DNA of 64,000 nucleotides from sequence record OL856099. One strand, written 5' to 3'. Below are positions 30,885 through 47,160 of this stretch, piece after piece; the first letter of the stretch is position 1, and the number at the start of each line of letters is the position of its first letter. The translations under genes and the position numbers were made by a program. Under the pieces are notes generated by a model. It did not search any database. It saw nothing but the letters and a program-made list of their open reading frames with translations, and had not been told where the DNA came from. Origin of the DNA: Shigella phage CWP003.

Positions 30885-31862
30885 TTAAAAATACTCCATA
30901 TCGGTAATATCACGGAAGCACTTATACAAGGCAGAGCGCGGCACGTCAACTATGCCAAAGTTAAAGAATTTATATGTCAAATACTTGTTTCGATAATTCT
31001 CGCGATTCTCCCAAAGCATTTTTCTCTCTGCCATAGGCATTGAACCAGCGGAGACGCGGAAGGGAATCATTTCACCTTTCTCATCAACATATTTTGGATT
31101 GACAACCACAAATGATCCAAGGTATCCTTTTGCAACTAAGCCTTCAGCCTCTTTCGAACGCTTAGTGCGACCCAACTCATCAATGAATGCTTCGTTGTTA
31201 TTCTCCATCATCTCAACGAAGTCTATGATCAGTCCTTCTTCATCGGTCCACGGCTTGTCCTTCCACACATCACGTGACTTTGGCGTCGCGCGGCCATGCT
31301 TGTATTTGCCCGTCCAAGACTTGCCATACAAGCCTTCATAGCCAAGCTGGTCTGCTTCGATTTGCATCGCCGCGTACTGTTCCATATTTTCGATGTTTCG
31401 ATATTCGAGAGCGCGAAGGAATGGGCGTCGACCATGGTTGATGAGGTGCTGATTGACTTCAGCAACTCTAGCGCGATAGTTTGCATAACGCTTTTCAAAA
31501 GGCAAATCAGGGTCGCTGAAGTCATCAAACACCCACCATGTAAAGTTAGTGATTGCATCAGTGTTCATGCATGCAGTATAGGCCTGTTGCATGACGTTCT
31601 TGTCATTCGGATTACCGTCAATTAGCTCTCCATCAAGTCCGTGAATCAATTCACCCAAGAATAGGAACTCTTTTTTGATTTGAATGTTGCGCAGTGCCAT
31701 GCCGGATGTGCCCATTGGCAAGTTGTCATACGCCATCGCGCGTATTCCATCGACCTTGAAGGATAATCCGCAAGGCAGCGGCACATCTTCGCCGCGCTCG
31801 ATGATTTGTTTACGCTGGCAACCTTTCATTGGTTTTAATGCTTTGATTTCTCCTGCCATCAC
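30885..31862 (-). CDS. ATP-dependent DNA ligase
   Basis: 325 aa; nucleotidyltransferase motif I KVDGIRA (KxDGxR); size typical of phage ligases. Confidence 0.75.
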   Translation of the reverse strand: MMAGEIKALKPMKGCQRKQIIERGEDVPLPCGLSFKVDGIRAMAYDNLPMGTSGMALRNIQIKKEFLFLGELIHGLDGELIDGNPNDKNVMQQAYTACMNTDAITNFTWWVFDDFSDPDLPFEKRYANYRARVAEVNQHLINHGRRPFLRALEYRNIENMEQYAAMQIEADQLGYEGLYGKSWTGKYKHGRATPKSRDVWKDKPWTDEEGLIIDFVEMMENNNEAFIDELGRTKRSKEAEGLVAKGYLGSFVVVNPKYVDEKGEMIPFRVSAGSMPMAERKMLWENRENYRNKYLTYKFFNFGIVDVPRSALYKCFRDITDMEYF

Positions 31863-32452
31863 TCAAACTCCTTATTCATCACTTGTTCCAGCGCATAGGC
31901 ATAAGCCTGATCAGTCGATTTAATAAACGTTCCGTTGTACATCACACCTTTACGGTCCTTGATGTCTTCATAGGCGGCTTGAGCGCAATCAGACAGTCGA
32001 AGTCCATAATCATGCGCTACGCCGGAAAGATAATCGACTGCGGCCATGATAGTGACATCAATATCCATGCTTTGATTTTTAGCAATGGCGTCACCAAGCC
32101 GTCCGAGAGTCTTCGCCAAGCGAAGGATAAAGGAATGAGGGTGAGCGCCTTTGTCAGCGCAACCGCCTCCGTTGATGTCTTCGATTTTTGCACCATTTTG
32201 CGCGGCAAGAATAGTTAACACAACAAGGCAATCACCGATGTCGTCCTTGATTGCGGCTTGCAAATCACAAATGGCCTGCTCTGTATATCCGATTTCAGGG
32301 TCAAAGAACACAAGGTCATGGAGTTGATCCACGTGGTCGGTCAACTCCCCAAACTCGCTAATAAGCTTCGGGTATTGGTCTTTAAGGCCGCAACCTTTGA
32401 TGATGTTACGGTCAGAAGCCCATTGGCGAATGTTTGCATAAATCTGGTTCAT
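31859..32452 (-). CDS. mazG: MazG-like nucleotide pyrophosphohydrolase
   Basis: 197 aa all-helical protein; recalled similarity to phage MazG-family proteins; adjacent to ligase. Confidence 0.6.
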   Translation of the reverse strand: MNQIYANIRQWASDRNIIKGCGLKDQYPKLISEFGELTDHVDQLHDLVFFDPEIGYTEQAICDLQAAIKDDIGDCLVVLTILAAQNGAKIEDINGGGCADKGAHPHSFILRLAKTLGRLGDAIAKNQSMDIDVTIMAAVDYLSGVAHDYGLRLSDCAQAAYEDIKDRKGVMYNGTFIKSTDQAYAYALEQVMNKEFE

Positions 32453-32967
32453 TTATTTTCCTTTGATGCGTTGAATTGGTCGATTTTAATTTTAGCCTGA
32501 TTATAAGTATCAATCAAGCTATTAACTTTCTCTTTTAATCGGTTCGTTTCTGCGGCGAACTGAACAAGAAATCGGACATCCTCTTCTGATAGTCCACAGT
32601 TTCCTTCTGGGATAGAGAGGCGTCCAGTGGTCGCAGAGTAGGGCACACTCCTGAGTAATTCACGGGAACAGCTGAGTTGCTCGCGCAGCTTGATATTCCC
32701 AGACTTGTAACGAGCAATAGTGTCATCAGCAACCAGTTGCGCTTCCTGGCGACCCTTCTCATATGCCGATGCCGATTCAACCTGTAAAGATGCAATTTGC
32801 TCTTCGAGTGCATTTATCTTGTCCTTACGCTCATTAAGCGATGTCAGATATTGATTGTCCTTGGCCAGTGATGCGTTGGTTTGCTGAAGGTCTTCAACGT
32901 ATGATCCAGCGGCGAACGCGCCAACAAGGGCCAGAATCTTCAGTAGCGGTACAATTCTTTCTATCAT
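32449..32967 (-). CDS. i-spanin (Rz-like)
   Basis: 172 aa; N-terminal TM helix (IVPLLKILALVGAFAAGSYV) followed by coiled-coil; fully contains an out-of-frame lipoprotein ORF. Confidence 0.55.
   Translation of the reverse strand: MIERIVPLLKILALVGAFAAGSYVEDLQQTNASLAKDNQYLTSLNERKDKINALEEQIASLQVESASAYEKGRQEAQLVADDTIARYKSGNIKLREQLSCSRELLRSVPYSATTGRLSIPEGNCGLSEEDVRFLVQFAAETNRLKEKVNSLIDTYNQAKIKIDQFNASKENK
32535..32762 (-). CDS. o-spanin (Rz1-like) embedded in the +1 frame of the i-spanin
   Basis: Within track ORF 32535..32813; from internal Met: MRRVARKRNWLLMTLLLVTSLGISSC with a lipobox-like ISSC, then a short proline-containing mature region. Confidence 0.45.
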   Translation of the reverse strand: MRRVARKRNWLLMTLLLVTSLGISSCASNSAVPVNYSGVCPTLRPLDASLSQKETVDYQKRMSDFLFSSPQKRTD

Positions 32968-33024
32968 GATGCACCAGATAAATAAAAGGCCGCCAATCGG
33001 CAGCCTTGTTGATTTGATTGTCGA

Positions 33025-33885
33025 TTAAAACTCTTCTGCGTCGGTCGGAGTTTCATTGACAGGACCAGCGGCACCACTTGCTTCTTCCTGCTTGCTGCGG
33101 TCAATGTTAACGTTGCCGCCAACCACGTCGTTGTGGAATGCTTTGGCGACTTCGTACAGGCCTTTGTCCTGCACCAGACCTTCCAGCTCAAACTTCAGGA
33201 CGGACCAGGTGTTGCCGTCTTTGGACTGAGACGCAGTACCCATGCGAACGATGTTCATGAAGGTCGGCGGCGTTTTCAGGCCCTGCGGAGTCTGAACTTT
33301 CTTCTGCTGCAGAGCGGTCATCAGCATGCGAGACGGCTTGATCATGGAAGAAGTCAGAGACAGCATTGCACTACCAAATTCACCAGTTTCTTCGTTCAAC
33401 AGAATCACGAAGTGGTTACGTGTATCTGCGTAGTAAGGTGATTTCTTCTCGTGCACCTTGCCGTTTTCGTCTGGCACAAACACCTTACCGTTGATCTCAA
33501 CAGCGCGGCCTGCCGCGACTTCTGCATCAACGTGCTCTTTGGTGAATTCACCTTTAAAGCCTTTATCGTCGGACTCGCGACCGCCCCAAAGGATGAAGGT
33601 GCGTTTGAATGCGCAAGGGATGATCTGCACGCCCTTCTTGCCGTCATACAATTCACCAGTAACGGTGTTGTACAGCATACCAGCTTTTGCGCCAGGAACG
33701 TGTTTTGGATCATCTTCGTCGACCATCGGAGACATCTTTTGCAGTACGACGATAAAAGGAATGGCATAAGCGTCGGCATCGGCACCTTCAAAACCAGCGC
33801 CAAAATCGGTCATATCGACAAAATCAGCCATAGCGGACATCTGGGTGTTTTTTGCTGCAACTTCGGTAGTTTCTTTCTTAGACAT
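33025..33885 (-). CDS. Putative ssDNA-binding protein (T7 gp2.5-like architecture)
   Basis: 286 aa; acidic C-terminal tail ending in Phe (...ETPTDAEEF); sits in the replication operon. Architecture-based inference only. Confidence 0.35.
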   Translation of the reverse strand: MSKKETTEVAAKNTQMSAMADFVDMTDFGAGFEGADADAYAIPFIVVLQKMSPMVDEDDPKHVPGAKAGMLYNTVTGELYDGKKGVQIIPCAFKRTFILWGGRESDDKGFKGEFTKEHVDAEVAAGRAVEINGKVFVPDENGKVHEKKSPYYADTRNHFVILLNEETGEFGSAMLSLTSSMIKPSRMLMTALQQKKVQTPQGLKTPPTFMNIVRMGTASQSKDGNTWSVLKFELEGLVQDKGLYEVAKAFHNDVVGGNVNIDRSKQEEASGAAGPVNETPTDAEEF

Positions 33886-33944
33886 TTGGTGTTTTCCTAT
33901 AGTATCAAGTTTCGTGGCAACCTGATTTCAAGATAAAGGTTAAA

Positions 33945-34502
33945 TTACTTTTTGCTTTTAGGCAAGGTTATTTTAGCTTCTTTATACTCAAAAACGCTAA
34001 TATCTTCACTAACTGGATTACCCGCTTCCAGCTGTTCTTTAACAAATGACTTCAGTGTAGCAGAATGAACGCCTTGTTTCAACGTGGCTTCAACACCGTC
34101 TTCACGCAGCGCGGCAACAATCTCTTGCGCTTGCTCGATTTCTTCGCGACCGAACTCAGCCGTGACGCTGGACTTGATCAAGCCGCCGTAACCGTTGTTG
34201 ACGAGCCAATCGAATACCTTCAATTCATTTTCTTTCTTGATTGAAGCATTTACTTTTGACTCGACCTTGATTTTGGTCTTGTCTTCAAGCTTGATTTCGG
34301 ACACGCCAAGCTCATCCATGACGCCAGGAAGCAGAACAGTTTTGATTTCACTGATGCGCTGCTTTTGCATATCAGCTTCATCTTCAAGCTCTGTCAAAGC
34401 TTCTTGGCGTTCTGCCAATTCCGATACTAAGCGCGCAAGGCGCTCTTGAATGCTCTCAGGAGCGACCTGCGGCAAATCATCTTCCCAATTAATATTGCTC
34501 AT
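33945..34502 (-). CDS. Hypothetical acidic protein
   Basis: Track ORF; position in the replication/recombination block. Confidence 0.4.
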   Translation of the reverse strand: MSNINWEDDLPQVAPESIQERLARLVSELAERQEALTELEDEADMQKQRISEIKTVLLPGVMDELGVSEIKLEDKTKIKVESKVNASIKKENELKVFDWLVNNGYGGLIKSSVTAEFGREEIEQAQEIVAALREDGVEATLKQGVHSATLKSFVKEQLEAGNPVSEDISVFEYKEAKITLPKSKK

Positions 34503-34762
34503 ATTTTACCTTCTTGCATTAGCCCTTCAACACGGGTCATTTGATAACGTTCAGGTTTCCAAGCCGCCAAAGCCTTCTCAGCGCCTTTTAAAGTCTTATA
34601 TGCCTTGATGCCAGGCATAATTACGGTATTCACCCCAGCACCGTTGCCATAATCAAACTCTTTTACAACGCGGAACATGCCGTCAATTTCTTTGACCAAA
34701 AGACGTTTGAACGCGATTGCGCCAGTAGCTTCATTTTTGTAACGTTCAAGGATGCGTACCAT
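34499..34762 (-). CDS. Hypothetical protein
   Basis: Track ORF, overlapping the downstream gene by 4 nt. Confidence 0.4.
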   Translation of the reverse strand: MVRILERYKNEATGAIAFKRLLVKEIDGMFRVVKEFDYGNGAGVNTVIMPGIKAYKTLKGAEKALAAWKPERYQMTRVEGLMQEGKI

Positions 34763-34836
34763 TTTGTATTCCTCTATTTCGTTTCGATGAAGTAATTATG
34801 ACTCATCTTCCGTGACAAGTCAAATTATTTTTGATA

Positions 34837-36360
34837 TTAATTCATCTTTTTGCCGTCGAGGATGTGATCAGCAAGCATTGACTTCATACTGAGTGAACGC
34901 TGAATTTCTTCGTCGATGGTATCAACACCAATAAAATCAACATACAACACGCTTGATTTGGTGCCGATGCGGTGATTTCGGTCTTCGGATTGTTTGCGCA
35001 GCTCGTTGTCGTAGTTGCAAGAATAATAAATTGCCAAGTCAGCGGCGGTAAGCGTGATGCCGATGCCTGCCGCTGCAGCGTGGCAAACCAATACCTGTGT
35101 TCCACCATTCGCGACTGTGTTCTTCTGGAAGTCATCAATTAAGAACTCGCGCTGCTCTTTGGACGTTTCACCGTTGTATACACCAGTGACCACGCCTTCA
35201 GACTCAAGCCAGTCCTTAATCTGGTTCATCTCTTCCTTAAAGATGGCCCAAACGATGAATTTGCGCTCTGGGTCGTCTTCCAGCACCCCTTCCACATAAT
35301 CCTTAAAGGCCGTGAATCGTGGGTTGTCTTCCATGTAGACCATCTCATCATACACCTTAACAAAACCGGATGTCACCTGCTTCATCTTAGTGCGCGACGC
35401 GATCATCTCAAACTTGACGTTTTCTTCTTCGCCCTTGTATTCCATCAAATAGTTGTACTCATTCTTGAGTTCATCGTAAACATCGCGTTGTTTAGGCGAC
35501 AACTCGAAGTCAATAAACTTGTACACCTTCTCTGGAAGGTCAGGCAAGTATTCTGCTTTTGTTGCACGAAAATAGTGCGGTTCCATCAGCCGGATAAGCT
35601 TGTCAAGGTTCTTGTACATCGGTCGGCCAAACTGGTCTTTGCGCGGCACTTGCGGAATCCCATAGCCATTGCCGCCGATTTTCTTGAGGATGGCTTGCAT
35701 CTCTGGGTCGTGCGCTTCAAGCAGCACAGTGAATTCAGAGTTAAAGGCACGGAATGATTTGGTGCCGAGCAATCCTGCTTCAAGGAAGTGGTATTGCATG
35801 TAAATATCCGCAGGCGAGCGCGGCAACGGCGTGCCAGAAAGGATTCGACGGGCCTTTGCCAGCCGTCCCAATTCCACAACCTTGATGGAGCGTTTGGCTG
35901 TGTTATTCTTGATGCGCGTTGATTCGTCGATGATCATCAGGCAGCGGTACTTCTTCAAGACCGACTCGATGTGTTGATAACCGACTGGTGTGTTGACAGT
36001 ATCGATGTTGAATGAGAAGATGCGCGCAGGCACTTCGCCTTCGGGGTAGTGATCAGCAAACATCTTCTCCCAAAGCGCCTTGCCCTTTTTAGTTTTCATC
36101 TTGTCGTTGCCGCGCCAGTAGTGCCCAATCCACTTGATGGAAAGGTGCTCTGGCGCTTCACGACGAATCCAGTTTGAGTGGACACCGTTTGGAGCGATGA
36201 CTACCATGGCATCGAACGCGCCAGCGGTGAAGTGCTTTTCAAACTCTGCCAAAGCGGTCCAAGTTTTACCAAGACCCTGTTCCATGAAATAGGCAAAGTA
36301 TTTTCTGCGGCCTGCTTTATCAAGCGCCAGAAGCTGGTGGCGCATCCCTTGTGTTTTCAT
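34837..36360 (-). CDS. SNF2-family helicase / DNA-dependent ATPase
   Basis: 507 aa; Walker A-like GLGKT, DExx-like MIIDESTRIKN, SNF2-type ILSGTPLPRSPADIY. Confidence 0.8.
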   Translation of the reverse strand: MKTQGMRHQLLALDKAGRRKYFAYFMEQGLGKTWTALAEFEKHFTAGAFDAMVVIAPNGVHSNWIRREAPEHLSIKWIGHYWRGNDKMKTKKGKALWEKMFADHYPEGEVPARIFSFNIDTVNTPVGYQHIESVLKKYRCLMIIDESTRIKNNTAKRSIKVVELGRLAKARRILSGTPLPRSPADIYMQYHFLEAGLLGTKSFRAFNSEFTVLLEAHDPEMQAILKKIGGNGYGIPQVPRKDQFGRPMYKNLDKLIRLMEPHYFRATKAEYLPDLPEKVYKFIDFELSPKQRDVYDELKNEYNYLMEYKGEEENVKFEMIASRTKMKQVTSGFVKVYDEMVYMEDNPRFTAFKDYVEGVLEDDPERKFIVWAIFKEEMNQIKDWLESEGVVTGVYNGETSKEQREFLIDDFQKNTVANGGTQVLVCHAAAAGIGITLTAADLAIYYSCNYDNELRKQSEDRNHRIGTKSSVLYVDFIGVDTIDEEIQRSLSMKSMLADHILDGKKMN

Positions 36361-36779
36361 GACAATTCCTCTAAATACTTGATGATGTGATGAATAGTGC
36401 CCTTCACGATTATCTCACGTTGAACGTCTGCAATATTATAACGCTTTAATTCAATCGAAGGGTGGACTAAATAAAACATCTTCTCAGAATCGACTTTAAG
36501 CAAAACAAATGATGGGTATTTCCAATCATTCCACGAAGAAAGAAAGCTGCACTGACCTTTCTCAAATGCATTTCTGAAAGGTGCAGTGGTGGCCCTTGCA
36601 GGCCACGATTCAAAGAACTTCATTTCAAGCCAAAAGCCGCGCCCTTTCCGGTTGGTGCCGATTACGTCCGGCACACCATCACCCGTCATTGATTCGATTC
36701 TTTGAAGCTTCAAGATTGATTCTGAATGCTTCTTCAAAGGCACGAATATGTATTTCTGTTCACGGTTATTTGTTGCCAT
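36357..36779 (-). CDS. VRR-NUC domain nuclease
   Basis: 140 aa; GVPDVIG...GFWLEMKF matches the PD-(D/E)xK-like VRR-NUC core; coupled to SNF2 as is typical. Confidence 0.65.
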   Translation of the reverse strand: MATNNREQKYIFVPLKKHSESILKLQRIESMTGDGVPDVIGTNRKGRGFWLEMKFFESWPARATTAPFRNAFEKGQCSFLSSWNDWKYPSFVLLKVDSEKMFYLVHPSIELKRYNIADVQREIIVKGTIHHIIKYLEELS

Positions 36780-39663
36780 CTGGATACACCTGTTTGATCA
36801 CGTCGACGATAAACATGTCAATACCTTCAAGCTTGCGGCCTTTCATCAGAAAGAATGCGCCGTTCCCGACGTTCTCTGCAATGTACTTACCGTATTTCTG
36901 GAACTTCTCTGGGCGAATCCTGAAGCGCATTGGCGAGTCGGTCGAATCGTCCTTGCACATAAGGTCAATGAACTGAGTCTCAAGCTTGTTTCCATACTGG
37001 TCAAACTCTGCGTAGCGGCCATCAGCTTGAAGACCCTTTTTAAGTTTGCCGTGCTTTGTATAAATGCCGCGCTCAAGACGTTTACGGATGCGTGTCGCTT
37101 CGTTCTCGTCAGCCAGCACTTTCTTGGTCAACTTGCCGATTACTATTGCACGCTCGTCATCGCCGACTTCCTTCATCTGGCGTATTGAAGCACCGGAAGT
37201 AACGCCAATCAGATAGGGGTCATTATACGCCCAGCCAAACTTGGTGTGCATCTCTGTAAGGTCGCCGTATTTGACTTCAGCATTGGCCAATGCATCCTTT
37301 TGTTTTTGCGTTAAGGTTCCGGCTTCACGCGCTTCGATGTACTTCATCGCCTTCACCATTCCGTACCCTTTGGCATTCATTATGCCGCCGATTAGCTTTC
37401 CGTTAGCGATGGTCCAGTTCATTGAAGAGTGATCAGGGTCGATTGGCACATAATCCACGCCTTCCTTTGCAAGTTCACGTAATATCGCAATCGTCTGGTC
37501 TTCGTCCTTAGCAGCGCGTAAGCAAGCAGCGGCAAATTCCAACGGGTAGTGTCGTTTAAGCCACAAGGTCCAGTAAGTCACGACCGCGTATGACACGGAG
37601 TGTGACTTGTTAAAGCCCCATGACCCGAACGTCGCCATCGCCTGCCAAAGCTTTCTTGCATCCGCTTCCGGTACGCCGTTATTTATTGCGCCTGCAACGA
37701 AGTCTTCGCCAAGCTTGTTAAAGTATTCCTCACCCTTACGACCTGACATCGCCTTACGCACAGCTGACGTTTTCGCCCAGTCGAATGAACCAATCTCTTT
37801 AACCACGGCCATGATTTGCTCTTGGTAAAGAAACACGCCATAAGTCTCTTTTAAGTACGGCTCAAGCTGCGGCACGTCGTACTCAATCGGCGCACGTCCT
37901 GCCGCGCGTTCAATGTATTTCTGGGCCATACCGGACGACAACGGGCCAGGTCGGCCAAGTGCTGTCAGGTTATCGATTTTGTTAAAGTTATCAACGTGCA
38001 CAAAGTTGGTCACTGAGCGTACAGCGTCGCCTTCAAACTGGAAGATGCCTGACATCTTGTTTTCGTTAAGGATGTCAAGGACGCTTTGGTCATCAAGCTT
38101 GATTCCGTACAGCGTTTCAGCATCTATCACGCCAGTATCAGAAATGATTCCGAGGGTGCGAAGACCCAATGCATCAAGCTTCAAAAGGTTAAGGTATTCG
38201 CTGTCAGGCTTATCAATTTGTGCAATCCCTTCCGCCGTTACCGTACAGTAATCAGAGATTGGGTCATTACAAACGATGATTCCCGCTGCGTGAACGCCAG
38301 TGTGGGAAGGGTGAATCTCAAGGTCACCCATGCATCGCGCGGCATCGGGATATTTAGCCACAAACTCTTGGCCCGTGGTCGTTGTTGCAAAGGTGTCCTC
38401 CAGGCCGTGGCCATAACGGGCGTCACCGGATGAGTATTCAAGCAATGCGTTTTTAATGTTGGCCGTTTCGTGATATCCAATGTTGAATTTCTTACCAACC
38501 TGAGCCATTACTGAGTTGGCCTTAAGCGTGTTGATGTTGCCAAGTTTTGCAACGTTCATTTCGCCGTATTTTTCTTTAAGGTAATCAAACACCATATAGC
38601 GTTTGGTATCCTCAAAGTCAATATCAATATCAGGAAGGTCTGCGCGGCTTACGTCAATGAATCGGGCAAACAGTAGCTTATACGGGATTGGGTCGACCTC
38701 CGTGATGCCGAGGCAATAACAAACCAGTGAACCAGCCGATGAGCCGCGAGCGGGTCCGACGAGCATTTTTGTTTTTGCGAATCGTACAAGGTCCGCTACC
38801 ACCAGAAAGTATGAGTCGAAATCTTTCAGCTGAATCTGGTGAATCTCTTCGTTGAATCGGTCCTCATATTCCTGAGTCCATTCTTTGATGTGACCTGCCT
38901 TAAGGCGGTACTCCATCCCCTCACGAGCAAGCTTTACCATGTCACCAGCAAGGTGGATAATCGGTGCCTTGCGCAGCTTCAGGTCAAGCCCAACGATTCC
39001 ATTTGCAATATCAACCGCATTGGCCGTTGCTTGATTCAACTCGTCTTCGGTCAGGATTCCTTTAAGCTGTTTGCGCAAGTCTTCCGCGTCAACGATGCAG
39101 TGCGGCTTAACCGTGTCTCGAACTTCCCATGCATAAGCAAAGTCAACGTGCTCAGGTGAAGGCATGTGGTTGTATCCGGTTAAAACCAGCGGCCTTCCGT
39201 TGCTGCGGTGAGCCAATACCTGGCGCTTGGCCAAAAGGAACGATGATGGGTTGACGTCTATATAATCATAGTCCTCTGGCCGCAGCAGCTCCACGGCCCC
39301 GCCACAGAATTTAACGACGCCATCGAGCGCCCCGAACTCTGCACGGGTCAGTCCGCCGCGCTGTGTTGCAAGCGTGGTCGCGTTGTAAAAGGATTTCAGG
39401 TCAAGCGCCAATATCCAAGCCTTCGGTTTGAATCCCTTTTTCGGGTCCGCATCAGGGTCAATGATTGGAATCTCCATACCGAACATAGGCTTGATATCAT
39501 TCTTCTGACATTCCTTTTCCCATCGAACGTGACCCCATGTATTGTTATCAACTAATGCCGCGACTTCGCAGCCCAACTCTTTGAGCCGTGCTATAATTTC
39601 AGGATGCCGTCCATATACTTCTTTGAACGTGTAACCGCTGCGAACTCTCAATTGTGGAAACAT
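36766..39663 (-). CDS. dnaE: DNA polymerase III alpha-like replicative polymerase (DnaE family, PHP domain)
   Basis: 965 aa; N-terminal PHP-like region (VRSGYTFKEVYGRH) and overall DnaE-like core. Confidence 0.8.
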   Translation of the reverse strand: MFPQLRVRSGYTFKEVYGRHPEIIARLKELGCEVAALVDNNTWGHVRWEKECQKNDIKPMFGMEIPIIDPDADPKKGFKPKAWILALDLKSFYNATTLATQRGGLTRAEFGALDGVVKFCGGAVELLRPEDYDYIDVNPSSFLLAKRQVLAHRSNGRPLVLTGYNHMPSPEHVDFAYAWEVRDTVKPHCIVDAEDLRKQLKGILTEDELNQATANAVDIANGIVGLDLKLRKAPIIHLAGDMVKLAREGMEYRLKAGHIKEWTQEYEDRFNEEIHQIQLKDFDSYFLVVADLVRFAKTKMLVGPARGSSAGSLVCYCLGITEVDPIPYKLLFARFIDVSRADLPDIDIDFEDTKRYMVFDYLKEKYGEMNVAKLGNINTLKANSVMAQVGKKFNIGYHETANIKNALLEYSSGDARYGHGLEDTFATTTTGQEFVAKYPDAARCMGDLEIHPSHTGVHAAGIIVCNDPISDYCTVTAEGIAQIDKPDSEYLNLLKLDALGLRTLGIISDTGVIDAETLYGIKLDDQSVLDILNENKMSGIFQFEGDAVRSVTNFVHVDNFNKIDNLTALGRPGPLSSGMAQKYIERAAGRAPIEYDVPQLEPYLKETYGVFLYQEQIMAVVKEIGSFDWAKTSAVRKAMSGRKGEEYFNKLGEDFVAGAINNGVPEADARKLWQAMATFGSWGFNKSHSVSYAVVTYWTLWLKRHYPLEFAAACLRAAKDEDQTIAILRELAKEGVDYVPIDPDHSSMNWTIANGKLIGGIMNAKGYGMVKAMKYIEAREAGTLTQKQKDALANAEVKYGDLTEMHTKFGWAYNDPYLIGVTSGASIRQMKEVGDDERAIVIGKLTKKVLADENEATRIRKRLERGIYTKHGKLKKGLQADGRYAEFDQYGNKLETQFIDLMCKDDSTDSPMRFRIRPEKFQKYGKYIAENVGNGAFFLMKGRKLEGIDMFIVDVIKQVYPDGNK

Positions 39664-45975: not shown

Positions 45976-47160
45976 TTAACGCGCTTTCAAATCACGGTAC
46001 ACGGTCAGATTCTTCTTAGCGCGGGTGATGGCTGTGTACATCATCTTGGCATACGGAACGCCGCGCAAGATTTCTTCTAGCACGCACACATTGTCCCACT
46101 CGCTGCCTTGCGATTTGTGCACCGTTATGACATAGCCATAGTCCATGCCTCCAACAGCGCGTTGAGCCTCTTTGCGCACTTCCTGATCAGTAGAGAAGGA
46201 AAGAGGATTTATCTTCACCTTTATATCTTTGCCATCGGTAAGCGAGCGCAAATTGACATACATGATTTCATTAGACTCGTCTTCATCCCTTTCAAAGTCC
46301 GGTACTGGCTCATAACTAATAACAATCCCTTGCTCGCCATTACAGAATCCTGGACCGTGTTGATTGAATGTGCAAATAACTTTCTCGCCGATTCCTGGCA
46401 TTGGCGTTATACGTCCGCTCACTTGGCGCAATAATGAATTCCATTTATCTTTGGTGCTATTATAAGAGCAAATAATTTGATCATCTTCGCCCATGAATTT
46501 CTTCAGTGCGGTAACGCGCGGCGATTCAGCCAACACCTTTACGTCATCGTATTCACGCGGAGGAAGTCGGTTGCCCTGTCGCACGAAGAAGGAAGCGCGG
46601 ATTATGTTTGACTCTTTCCCCTGCCGCATGATTTCGGTTAACAGTACGTCAACGGCATCTTCAGTGAAGTAGGCGGCGGCTTTTACCGGAGGGACTTGTC
46701 CAATGTCGCCTAATGCCAGGACAGGGATGCGGTGATCAAGAAGGCGCTCTGTGTCCCACTCACCGACCATTGAAGCTTCATCAAGGACGACAAGGTGCGG
46801 CCTTTCATCAAGCGTTGACTTTCTTGCGAAGATTGGTTCATTGTCATCGTTAACGCCGCGCACGTTATAGATGAACTGGTGAAGGGTCTTAGCGCCACGA
46901 CAACCTTTTTGCTTTAATCGGCTGGCGGCCTTTCCGGTCGGCGCAATATAAATGGCACCGTACTCACCGACACAACGGCGCACAATCTCACGCGCAATAG
47001 AGGTTTTACCTGTTCCTGCATAGCCAGCGATGAAAAACACGCGCTTCGTCGTTTTACCGTCCTGCAATCGCTTGTACCATGCAACGGCCTTTTCGATGGC
47101 ATCAATCTGTTGCGCGTTGAACTGAATCACTGGCTCATTATTAAATTCTGGAATGTTCAT
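45976..47160 (-). CDS. SF1 DNA helicase (RecD/Dda/Pif1-like)
   Basis: 394 aa; Walker A GYAGTGKTS, Walker B-like VVLDEASMV. Confidence 0.75.
   Translation of the reverse strand: MNIPEFNNEPVIQFNAQQIDAIEKAVAWYKRLQDGKTTKRVFFIAGYAGTGKTSIAREIVRRCVGEYGAIYIAPTGKAASRLKQKGCRGAKTLHQFIYNVRGVNDDNEPIFARKSTLDERPHLVVLDEASMVGEWDTERLLDHRIPVLALGDIGQVPPVKAAAYFTEDAVDVLLTEIMRQGKESNIIRASFFVRQGNRLPPREYDDVKVLAESPRVTALKKFMGEDDQIICSYNSTKDKWNSLLRQVSGRITPMPGIGEKVICTFNQHGPGFCNGEQGIVISYEPVPDFERDEDESNEIMYVNLRSLTDGKDIKVKINPLSFSTDQEVRKEAQRAVGGMDYGYVITVHKSQGSEWDNVCVLEEILRGVPYAKMMYTAITRAKKNLTVYRDLKAR

Follow-up and report, generated by a model that had tools for sequence, protein, structure and literature searches.

In a 64,000-nucleotide stretch of DNA from Shigella phage CWP003 (record OL856099; hereafter the window), we identified a gene of the family PF23977 whose product is probably the phage's own single-stranded DNA (ssDNA)-binding protein (SSB). 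The protein, of 286 amino acids (aa), appears to combine a scaffold with an oligonucleotide/oligosaccharide-binding (OB) fold, like that of T4 gp32 and phiC31 gp3, with a C-terminus that is tipped by phenylalanine and would recruit partner proteins. This assignment draws on the predicted fold, the tail, the arms, the conserved residues, the replication context and the lack of any other annotated SSB; from these we infer ssDNA binding itself.

The open reading frame (ORF) lies on the minus strand at 33025–33885. Its ATG start codon (33885–33883) is preceded by a Shine-Dalgarno-like AGGA, its stop codon is at 33027–33025, and its product ends in ...GPVNETPTDAEEF according to the list of ORFs with translations. 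The plus strand of the same interval offers no open reading and has stops throughout. An initial annotation, made from the sequence alone, had given the coordinates and the C-terminal letters exactly; the strand, which it left unstated, is the minus strand. The protein is 100% identical to HOV51_gp055 (RefSeq label "hypothetical protein") of Escherichia phage vB_EcoM_WFH (hereafter WFH), a member of the genus Wifcevirus and a relative of the PB1-like phages, and the whole window is 100% identical to this phage. The protein also matches PF23977 (Pam3_Gp34) in Pfam over residues 15–259 (E = 4e-86; 289 bits, curated cutoff 27) and PHROG 2402 (E = 2.4e-104). By these sequence matches and the identity with HOV51_gp055, the ORF is a genuine gene. 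Both families are listed without an assigned function.

The gene and the parts of its product are laid out as follows.

33025–33885, minus strand, including the stop at 33025–33027: PF23977 (Pam3_Gp34-family) gene, candidate phage SSB of 286 aa (from the ORF list, Pfam, PHROG and HOV51_gp055).
33832–33885, minus strand: predicted disordered N-terminal arm, residues 1–18 (MSKKETTEV...), with a predicted local distance difference test score (pLDDT) below 50.
33766–33831, minus strand: acidic and aromatic motif F-x-D-x-x-D-F-G-x-G-F-E-G-x-D, residues 19–40, a low-confidence part of the model with pLDDT 55–67.
33106–33765, minus strand: predicted folded, mostly beta core with an OB-like fold, residues 41–260, carrying conserved aromatic and basic residues.
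33049–33105, minus strand: predicted disordered and variable linker of Gly, Ser and acidic residues, residues 261–279, with the lowest conservation, many alignment gaps and low pLDDT.
33028–33048, minus strand: tip TPTDAEEF, residues 280–286, with the motif P-x-(D/E)-A-(E/D)-x-F-COOH in 119 close homologs; proposed partner-recruitment peptide.

An AlphaFold2 model built on a 40-sequence alignment (pLDDT 80; predicted template modeling score 0.73) has a confident, mostly beta core spanning about residues 41–260, flanked by residues 1–18 and 268–286, which are predicted to be disordered. The initial annotation had proposed structure prediction as a check for an OB fold. Such a check returned an OB-containing fold, and the nearest solved relatives of the model are ssDNA binders. 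phiC31 gp3 is among the structural matches, and the predicted structure has its fold in common with the gp3 family. The top solved match is an integrase cofactor, and the entry 9teh comes from a cryo-electron microscopy study of the phiC31 integrase.

Across 147 diverse members of the family, the aromatic residues F44, F93, F97, W100, F110, F159, F209 and W227 are conserved, as are the basic core residues R95, R103, R156, K183 and R186; H158 is a further conserved residue of the core. Most of these aromatic and basic residues fall on predicted strands of the model, a placement that would fit an ssDNA-binding surface. Outside the core, the motif at residues 19–40 contains an invariant G31 and an E33 that is 94% conserved (147 sequences); it could be a docking peptide, either intramolecular or intermolecular. 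The N-terminus is basic in the family, its initial 15 residues having a mean net charge of +1.5 among 143 representatives, and the arm that it forms may be analogous to the B domain of gp32.

The C-terminal tail is a second line of evidence. Phenylalanine is the last residue in 119 of 119 full-length close homologs, 114 of which have Ala at position -4, 114 Glu or Asp at -3, and 92 Pro at -7. Of 143 diverse PF23977 representatives, Phe is the final residue in 107, and the chain terminates with one of F, Y, M, L, I, V or W in 131, while the overall frequency of Phe is 4.2%; the terminal-Phe tail exceeds chance. The last two residues are PF in 31 of the 143. Thirteen of them carry an acidic-(I/V/L/M)PF tip (for example DDDDIPF, DEEIPF or GDDIPF) that nearly matches the end of E. 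coli SSB, ...DFDDDIPF. Such a tail occurs in just one of 7,698 non-family ORFs of the same loci, and that ORF encodes a small SSB-like protein. Disorder is predicted for the tail (pLDDT below 50 over residues 268–286), which is only moderately acidic, with a net charge of -4 over residues 263–286 and of about -2 over the last 10. The gp2.5-like tail described in the initial annotation is thus borne out as acidic and Phe-terminated (in all 119 close homologs), but it is far less acidic than that of T7 gp2.5, ...DEESWDEDDEESEEADEDGDF.

Partner binding by the C-terminal tip of SSBs is documented in three papers (PMC5872125, PMC3045619, PMC3632105). Tip types and nearby replication genes were compared across IMG/VR loci, 79 in all, a sample that is biased toward relatives sharing two conserved peptide patterns. 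The A(D/E)xF tip co-occurs with a DnaE-like polymerase gene in 31 of 37 loci, and tips of the KF and (I/V/M)PF types are associated with a nearby VP2-type primase or Pol A. The tail may recruit the DnaE-like polymerase specifically, as the initial annotation suggests; the family is, however, also present in phages with Pol A (VP2). The pattern of tip types hints at co-evolution of the tip with the replisome, in an association that is confounded by shared ancestry.

The same fold and tail could serve another purpose. An OB-fold protein may act mainly through protein contacts, with no coating of ssDNA, as a gp3-like directionality cofactor, as a regulator or loader of the neighboring helicase, or as a decoy for host SSB-binding proteins. 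The top structural match was solved as an integrase cofactor and the core of the PF23977 protein is not basic; tails that resemble an SSB tip could moreover compete with the host SSB for its partners, if the findings on tip binding (PMC5872125, PMC3045619, PMC3632105) are extended to these phages. We regard such a role as rather improbable, however. WFH appears to be a virulent phage with no annotated integrase, ssDNA binding is reported for the TG1 relative of gp3 itself (PMC11795197), and the conserved aromatic and basic strand residues fit nucleic-acid binding.

We then compared the candidate SSB with known SSB systems. Probabilities from hhalign were at most 0.6% against phiC31 gp3, T7 gp2.5, T4 gp32, E. 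coli SSB and the Vibrio phage VP2 protein VP2p29. The queries were an alignment of low diversity (number of effective sequences, Neff, of 2.5) and one of 147 sequences (Neff 5.0), and gp3 was tested both alone and as a 25-sequence alignment. The protein has no Pfam match to the gp3 family (PF18897; hhalign at most 0.5% for gp3 in both forms), to gp32 (PF08804; 0.25–0.3%), to bacterial SSB (PF00436; 0.2% against E. coli SSB), or to SBB_T7 or Enc34_ssDNA-bd (T7 gp2.5, PF21265 / Gp2.5-like superfamily, Lopes et al. 2010, PMC2896510; 0.1–0.3%). Given this lack of profile similarity, the link between PF23977 and known SSBs is one of fold and architecture only, with no demonstrable homology.

phiC31 gp3 and TG1 gp25 (PF18897, Gp3-like) are OB-fold recombination directionality factors (RDFs) for a serine integrase (PMC11795197). 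The TG1 RDF (gp25), described as resembling its phiC31 counterpart, adopts an OB fold closest to that of gp32 and binds ssDNA, but not double-stranded DNA, in electrophoretic mobility shift assays; it is probably an SSB of replication that is "moonlighting" in the RDF role (PMC11795197; Nucleic Acids Research 2025). Several features set PF23977 apart from these proteins. In the gp3 homologs an H-H-C...C-x-C set is invariant at the position of the predicted Zn site of the TG1 RDF; PF23977 lacks this set. The recruiting peptide proposed for the TG1 RDF is N-terminal, whereas the conserved tip of PF23977 is C-terminal. The immediate neighbors of phiC31 gp3 are the 73-aa gp2 and an exonuclease. 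Finally, gp3 pairs with a large serine integrase, whereas no integrase is annotated in WFH, which excludes an RDF role there.

In its predicted layout, the PF23977 protein may resemble gp32, the replicative SSB of T4-like phages (T4, RB69). In gp32, a B domain confers cooperativity, an OB core follows, and an A domain recruits partners, including Dda (PMC11551737). PF23977 has ends that are predicted to be disordered, of which the N-terminal one is basic (at the level of the family) and the C-terminal one acidic. With 286 aa it is close in size to the 301 aa of gp32, which accounts for the "larger body" remarked on in the initial annotation: the size was right, but the body is not that of an enlarged gp2.5, since it fits a gp32/gp3-like core. 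The two proteins also differ. gp32 contains a Zn-binding Cys/His set that is not found in PF23977, ends in Leu and not in Phe, and has no obligate neighboring partner, unlike PF23977 with DUF7307 (described below); the strict LAST motif is missing from PF23977.

E. coli SSB follows a plan that PF23977 appears to share: an OB core, a disordered linker and a short acidic tip that ends in Phe. The final residues of several PF23977 clades, DDIPF, EEIPF or DDVPF, are almost those of the bacterial SSB tip. The WFH clade has D-A-E-E-F as its tip, compared with D-D-D-I-P-F in E. coli SSB, and the OB body of PF23977 is different and larger.

Taken literally, the initial annotation would make the protein an enlarged homolog of T7 gp2.5, acting as both SSB and annealing protein. 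Like PF23977, gp2.5 is phage-encoded in a replication module and has an acidic tail ending in Phe; its tail is, however, far more acidic and its body smaller (232 aa). Pfam returns PF23977 only, hhalign gives at most 0.3% (at Neff 2.5 and 5.0), gp2.5 is not within the top 60 structural matches of the model, and the closest structural relative of the model is not a gp2.5-type OB fold with a long alpha-1 helix. A Phe-ended acidic tip is also found on unrelated scaffolds such as E. coli SSB, so that the tip is no sign of common ancestry with gp2.5. Descent from a gp2.5-like protein is therefore very unlikely. Of the description as "SSB-like, T7 gp2.5-type", the first half probably stands, given the OB-containing fold, the arms, the replication operon, the lack of another annotated SSB and the DDIPF tips in the family; the second half falls for lack of Pfam or profile similarity and because of the weaker acidity. 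PF23977 may thus be seen as a sequence-distinct, Zn-less and partner-associated version of the acidic-tailed OB-fold phage SSB.

In the mechanism that we propose for such an SSB, the OB-containing core (residues about 41–260) would coat the ssDNA that is exposed at the fork of phage replication as well as in recombination. Like T4 gp32, the protein would be made up of three parts: a disordered N-terminal arm, the core as a folded domain, and a C-terminal linker that is both disordered and acidic. A pocket on a partner protein would receive the terminal Phe, an analogy drawn from the tips of E. coli SSB, T7 gp2.5 and T4 gp32. Candidate partners of the tail include the DnaE-like polymerase, the Dda-like or SNF2 helicases, the primases and host SSB-binding proteins. 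We infer each of these elements, namely ssDNA binding, cooperativity, the action and partners of the tail, and joint action with DUF7307.

The family is widespread. An exhaustive search with the PF23977 profile recovered 4,720 clusters (50% identity) at E <= 1e-3, 852 of them at E <= 1e-30. By tblastn, the gene is present in 510 phage records, in which every annotated copy is called "hypothetical"; the phages include PB1-like Pseudomonas phages, Yuavirus, Bordetella phages, VP2-like Vibrio phages, and Xanthomonas and Burkholderia phages. A search of NCBIfam with the 286-aa protein gave no match, and a comparison of all Protein Data Bank sequences with the protein and the family profile gave a best E of 0.49, to unrelated proteins. 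In the literature library covered, searches for the Pfam names found no mention, and searches on Pam3 gp34, PB1-like SSBs and the transcriptomics of 14-1 and YuA found nothing on the PF23977 gene specifically.

The genomic setting is that of DNA replication. The gene lies inside a leftward cluster for replication and nucleotide metabolism, on the opposite strand from the structural genes. In the order of transcription, the cluster contains an exonuclease subunit, the DnaE-like polymerase, a VRR-NUC-like gene, the SNF2 helicase, an 87-aa ORF, DUF7307, the PF23977 gene, a terminator, a spanin gene, MazG and a ligase. The annotation of WFH also includes two primase-like genes and a Dda-like helicase. 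The elements that bear on the candidate SSB are the following.

32986–33007, minus strand: intrinsic terminator directly 3' of the PF23977 gene, with a 9-bp stem, 6 G-C pairs and a T-run (terminator scan, sequence and RefSeq annotation).
33945–34502, minus strand: DUF7307 (PF23984, Pam3 gp33-like), 185 aa, near-obligate upstream partner (Pfam E = 2.6e-37).
34499–34762, minus strand: 87-aa ORF (phrog_27467), first gene of a possible three-gene unit (ORF list, PHROG and hhalign).
34795–34823, minus strand: sigma-70-like promoter candidate TTGACT-17-CATAAT, with 10 of 12 matches, upstream of the 87-aa ORF (consensus scan only).
34837–36360, minus strand: SNF2-family helicase, candidate partner (Pfam SNF2-rel_dom and Helicase_C).
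36766–39663, minus strand: DnaE-like (Pol III alpha-like) polymerase, candidate tail partner (RefSeq annotation).
45976–47160, minus strand: Dda-like helicase, candidate partner by analogy with T4 gp32 and Dda (PHROG 325, E = 2.5e-99).

The complete annotation of WFH lists no SSB, recombinase or integrase, which leaves the PF23977 protein as the only evident SSB candidate of this phage. Likewise, an E. coli-type SSB was found within 10 kb of the gene in none of the 79 IMG/VR loci. DUF7307 lies upstream of PF23977 in 78 of these 79 loci; in about 74 it is immediately adjacent, and the two genes are often start/stop-coupled, although the intergenic gaps are approximate because our script calls the longest ORF. 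The model of DUF7307 consists of a long N-terminal helix and a small alpha/beta domain, and a structural search with it gave no informative match.

The order SF2 helicase, (PF23992), DUF7307, PF23977 is kept in the phages PAE1, MW2 and VP2, in which the PF23977 proteins are less than 30% identical, and in PAE1 and MW2 a Dda-like helicase gene lies directly downstream of the PF23977 gene. Among loci of the WFH-type clade, an SF2 helicase is present within 10 kb in 35 of 37. We rejected the 87-aa ORF as a divergent PF23992 (Pam3_gp32) protein, the hhalign probability being 0.6%. PF23992 fills this slot in PAE1, MW2 and many IMG/VR loci and the 87-aa ORF is unrelated to it, so that Wifcevirus appears to have another gene at this place. 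The candidate promoter and the terminator, both consensus matches only, possibly bracket a three-gene unit of the 87-aa ORF, DUF7307 and the PF23977 gene.

In VP2 and seven IMG/VR loci, a small gene (about 90–158 aa) with no Pfam match lies directly downstream of PF23977. In VP2 its product ends in PPMDFDDDIPF, and its counterparts elsewhere end in ...(V/M)PF. Tail-bearing genes of this kind, given here by locus label, are the following.

L007 (Vibrio phage VP2), 7744–8220: VP2p29.
L077, 10976–11254: small tail-bearing gene.
L082, 2144–2473: small tail-bearing gene.
L087, 8988–9323: small tail-bearing gene.
L089, 4288–4611: small tail-bearing gene.

From their sequences, these genes of the VP2 subclade look like a second, unrecognized family of mini SSB-like proteins. 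VP2p29 is annotated as "SSB", an annotation that appears to rest on its tail alone. As a canonical SSB it was rejected, as it has no Pfam match and only the DDDIPF tail in common with one.

The pairing with DUF7307 invites another explanation, in which the PF23977 protein would be one half of a two-component recombination module. It would then be an annealing protein or mediator (compare annealing by T7 gp2.5, or Sak4 with its cognate SSB) for recombination-dependent replication or repair, and not a general replicative SSB. DUF7307 sits upstream in 78 of the 79 loci, often start/stop-coupled, and does so even where PF23977 is less than 30% identical. The pair follows an SF2/SNF2 helicase, to which a VRR-NUC-like gene is added here, and no other recombinase is annotated in WFH. 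VP2-like phages have a separate, adjoining small SSB-like gene with a DDDIPF tip. In phiC31, an exonuclease gene lies two genes upstream of gp3, and the genes of Gp2.5-like annealing proteins are found in clusters with those of recE-like exonucleases (PMC2896510). On the other hand, DUF7307 has no informative structural match, most PF23977 phages have no other SSB candidate nearby, and the annealing and SSB roles can be combined, as gp2.5 does both. A dedicated annealing or mediator protein is, in our estimate, the main alternative, though an unlikely one, and it is compatible with SSB activity and does not exclude it.

Several observations weigh against a replicative SSB. To our knowledge, known single-chain SSBs need no obligate partner, yet DUF7307 accompanies PF23977 in 78 of 79 loci. 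The core has a net charge of -1, and PF23977 has no conserved Cys, hence no counterpart of the Zn site of gp32 or of the one predicted for the TG1 RDF. The naming of annotated copies among the 510 phage records, all "hypothetical", lends the assignment no help. Finally, the presence of two tail-bearing proteins in VP2-like phages means that PF23977 may not be the sole or main SSB there, and perhaps has a more specialized role; VP2p29 weakens the claim of a sole SSB for the VP2 clade and does not refute it.

A PB1-like ortholog cluster (P0084; Pseudomonas phage phiLCL12; 115 member sequences) bears the source name "putative holin". This name conflicts with the OB-type fold predicted for the family and is probably a misannotation, one that could spread. 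That the protein acts in lysis or in the virion is hardly credible, although the phiLCL12 name and a spanin gene just downstream speak for it. The predicted core is mostly beta and of OB type, with no long hydrophobic helix; the sequence has many charged residues; a terminator separates the PF23977 gene from the spanin gene; and the gene is transcribed with replication genes, on the strand opposite to the structural genes. On the grounds of core, charge, terminator and strand, we rejected the holin identity.

Other genes of the region were also reviewed. An Rz-like i-spanin gene (32449–32967, minus strand), with a nested ORF in another frame (32535–32813, minus strand) that is likely the o-spanin, lies inside the replication and nucleotide-metabolism cluster. 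This spanin pair is about 2.5 kb from the endolysin gene, which is on the opposite strand. RefSeq labels a 325-aa ORF at 30885–31862 (minus strand) "hypothetical protein"; PHROG 114 makes it an ATP-dependent DNA ligase (E = 5e-42), and its Pfam matches to ligase and OB domains are weak. A 140-aa ORF at 36357–36779 (minus strand) is called "DNA helicase" in RefSeq via phrog_2165, but its size is far below that of a helicase. Pfam gives no match for it and PHROG a weak one to Holliday-junction resolvases; its product is probably nuclease-like, small, and coupled to the SNF2 helicase. In a megablast search with positions 32000–37000, 35 of 63 phage records matched at 80–90% DNA identity, and 34 of the 63 were Pseudomonas phages. 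Parts of the replication region thus seem to be conserved at the DNA level between phages whose hosts belong to different bacterial orders.

An SSB is in itself an unsurprising function for a phage to encode. Phages of the PB1-like group (Pbunavirus), like their E. coli relatives (Wifcevirus), are often isolated, and some, such as E217 and Pa193, are described as therapeutic phages. Their genomes code for most of a replisome, yet no SSB is annotated in the WFH record. If PF23977 is an SSB, it would fill this annotation gap in a much-used group of phages and supply a function, open to experiment, for a family of about 4,700 sequence clusters that is listed as unknown in Pfam and PHROGs. It would also extend the finding that directionality factors of the phiC31/TG1 type are borrowed replication SSBs (PMC11795197), by adding a sequence-unrelated but structurally similar family that, in virulent phages, performs what is presumed to be the ancestral task. 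The conserved tip would offer a precise handle for mapping replisome contacts, and the DUF7307 partner a lead to something that has not been seen with classical SSBs. More speculatively, and with considerable doubt on our part, PF23977 and DUF7307 might form a widespread, previously unrecognized two-protein system for handling ssDNA in tailed phages, in which an SSB-like subunit and a coiled-coil partner act in annealing or in helicase or polymerase loading. The tip would then be tuned, clade by clade, to the replisome that the phage itself encodes (A-E-x-F where the polymerase is DnaE-like), or would mimic the tip of the host SSB (DDIPF) to take over host SSB-binding proteins.

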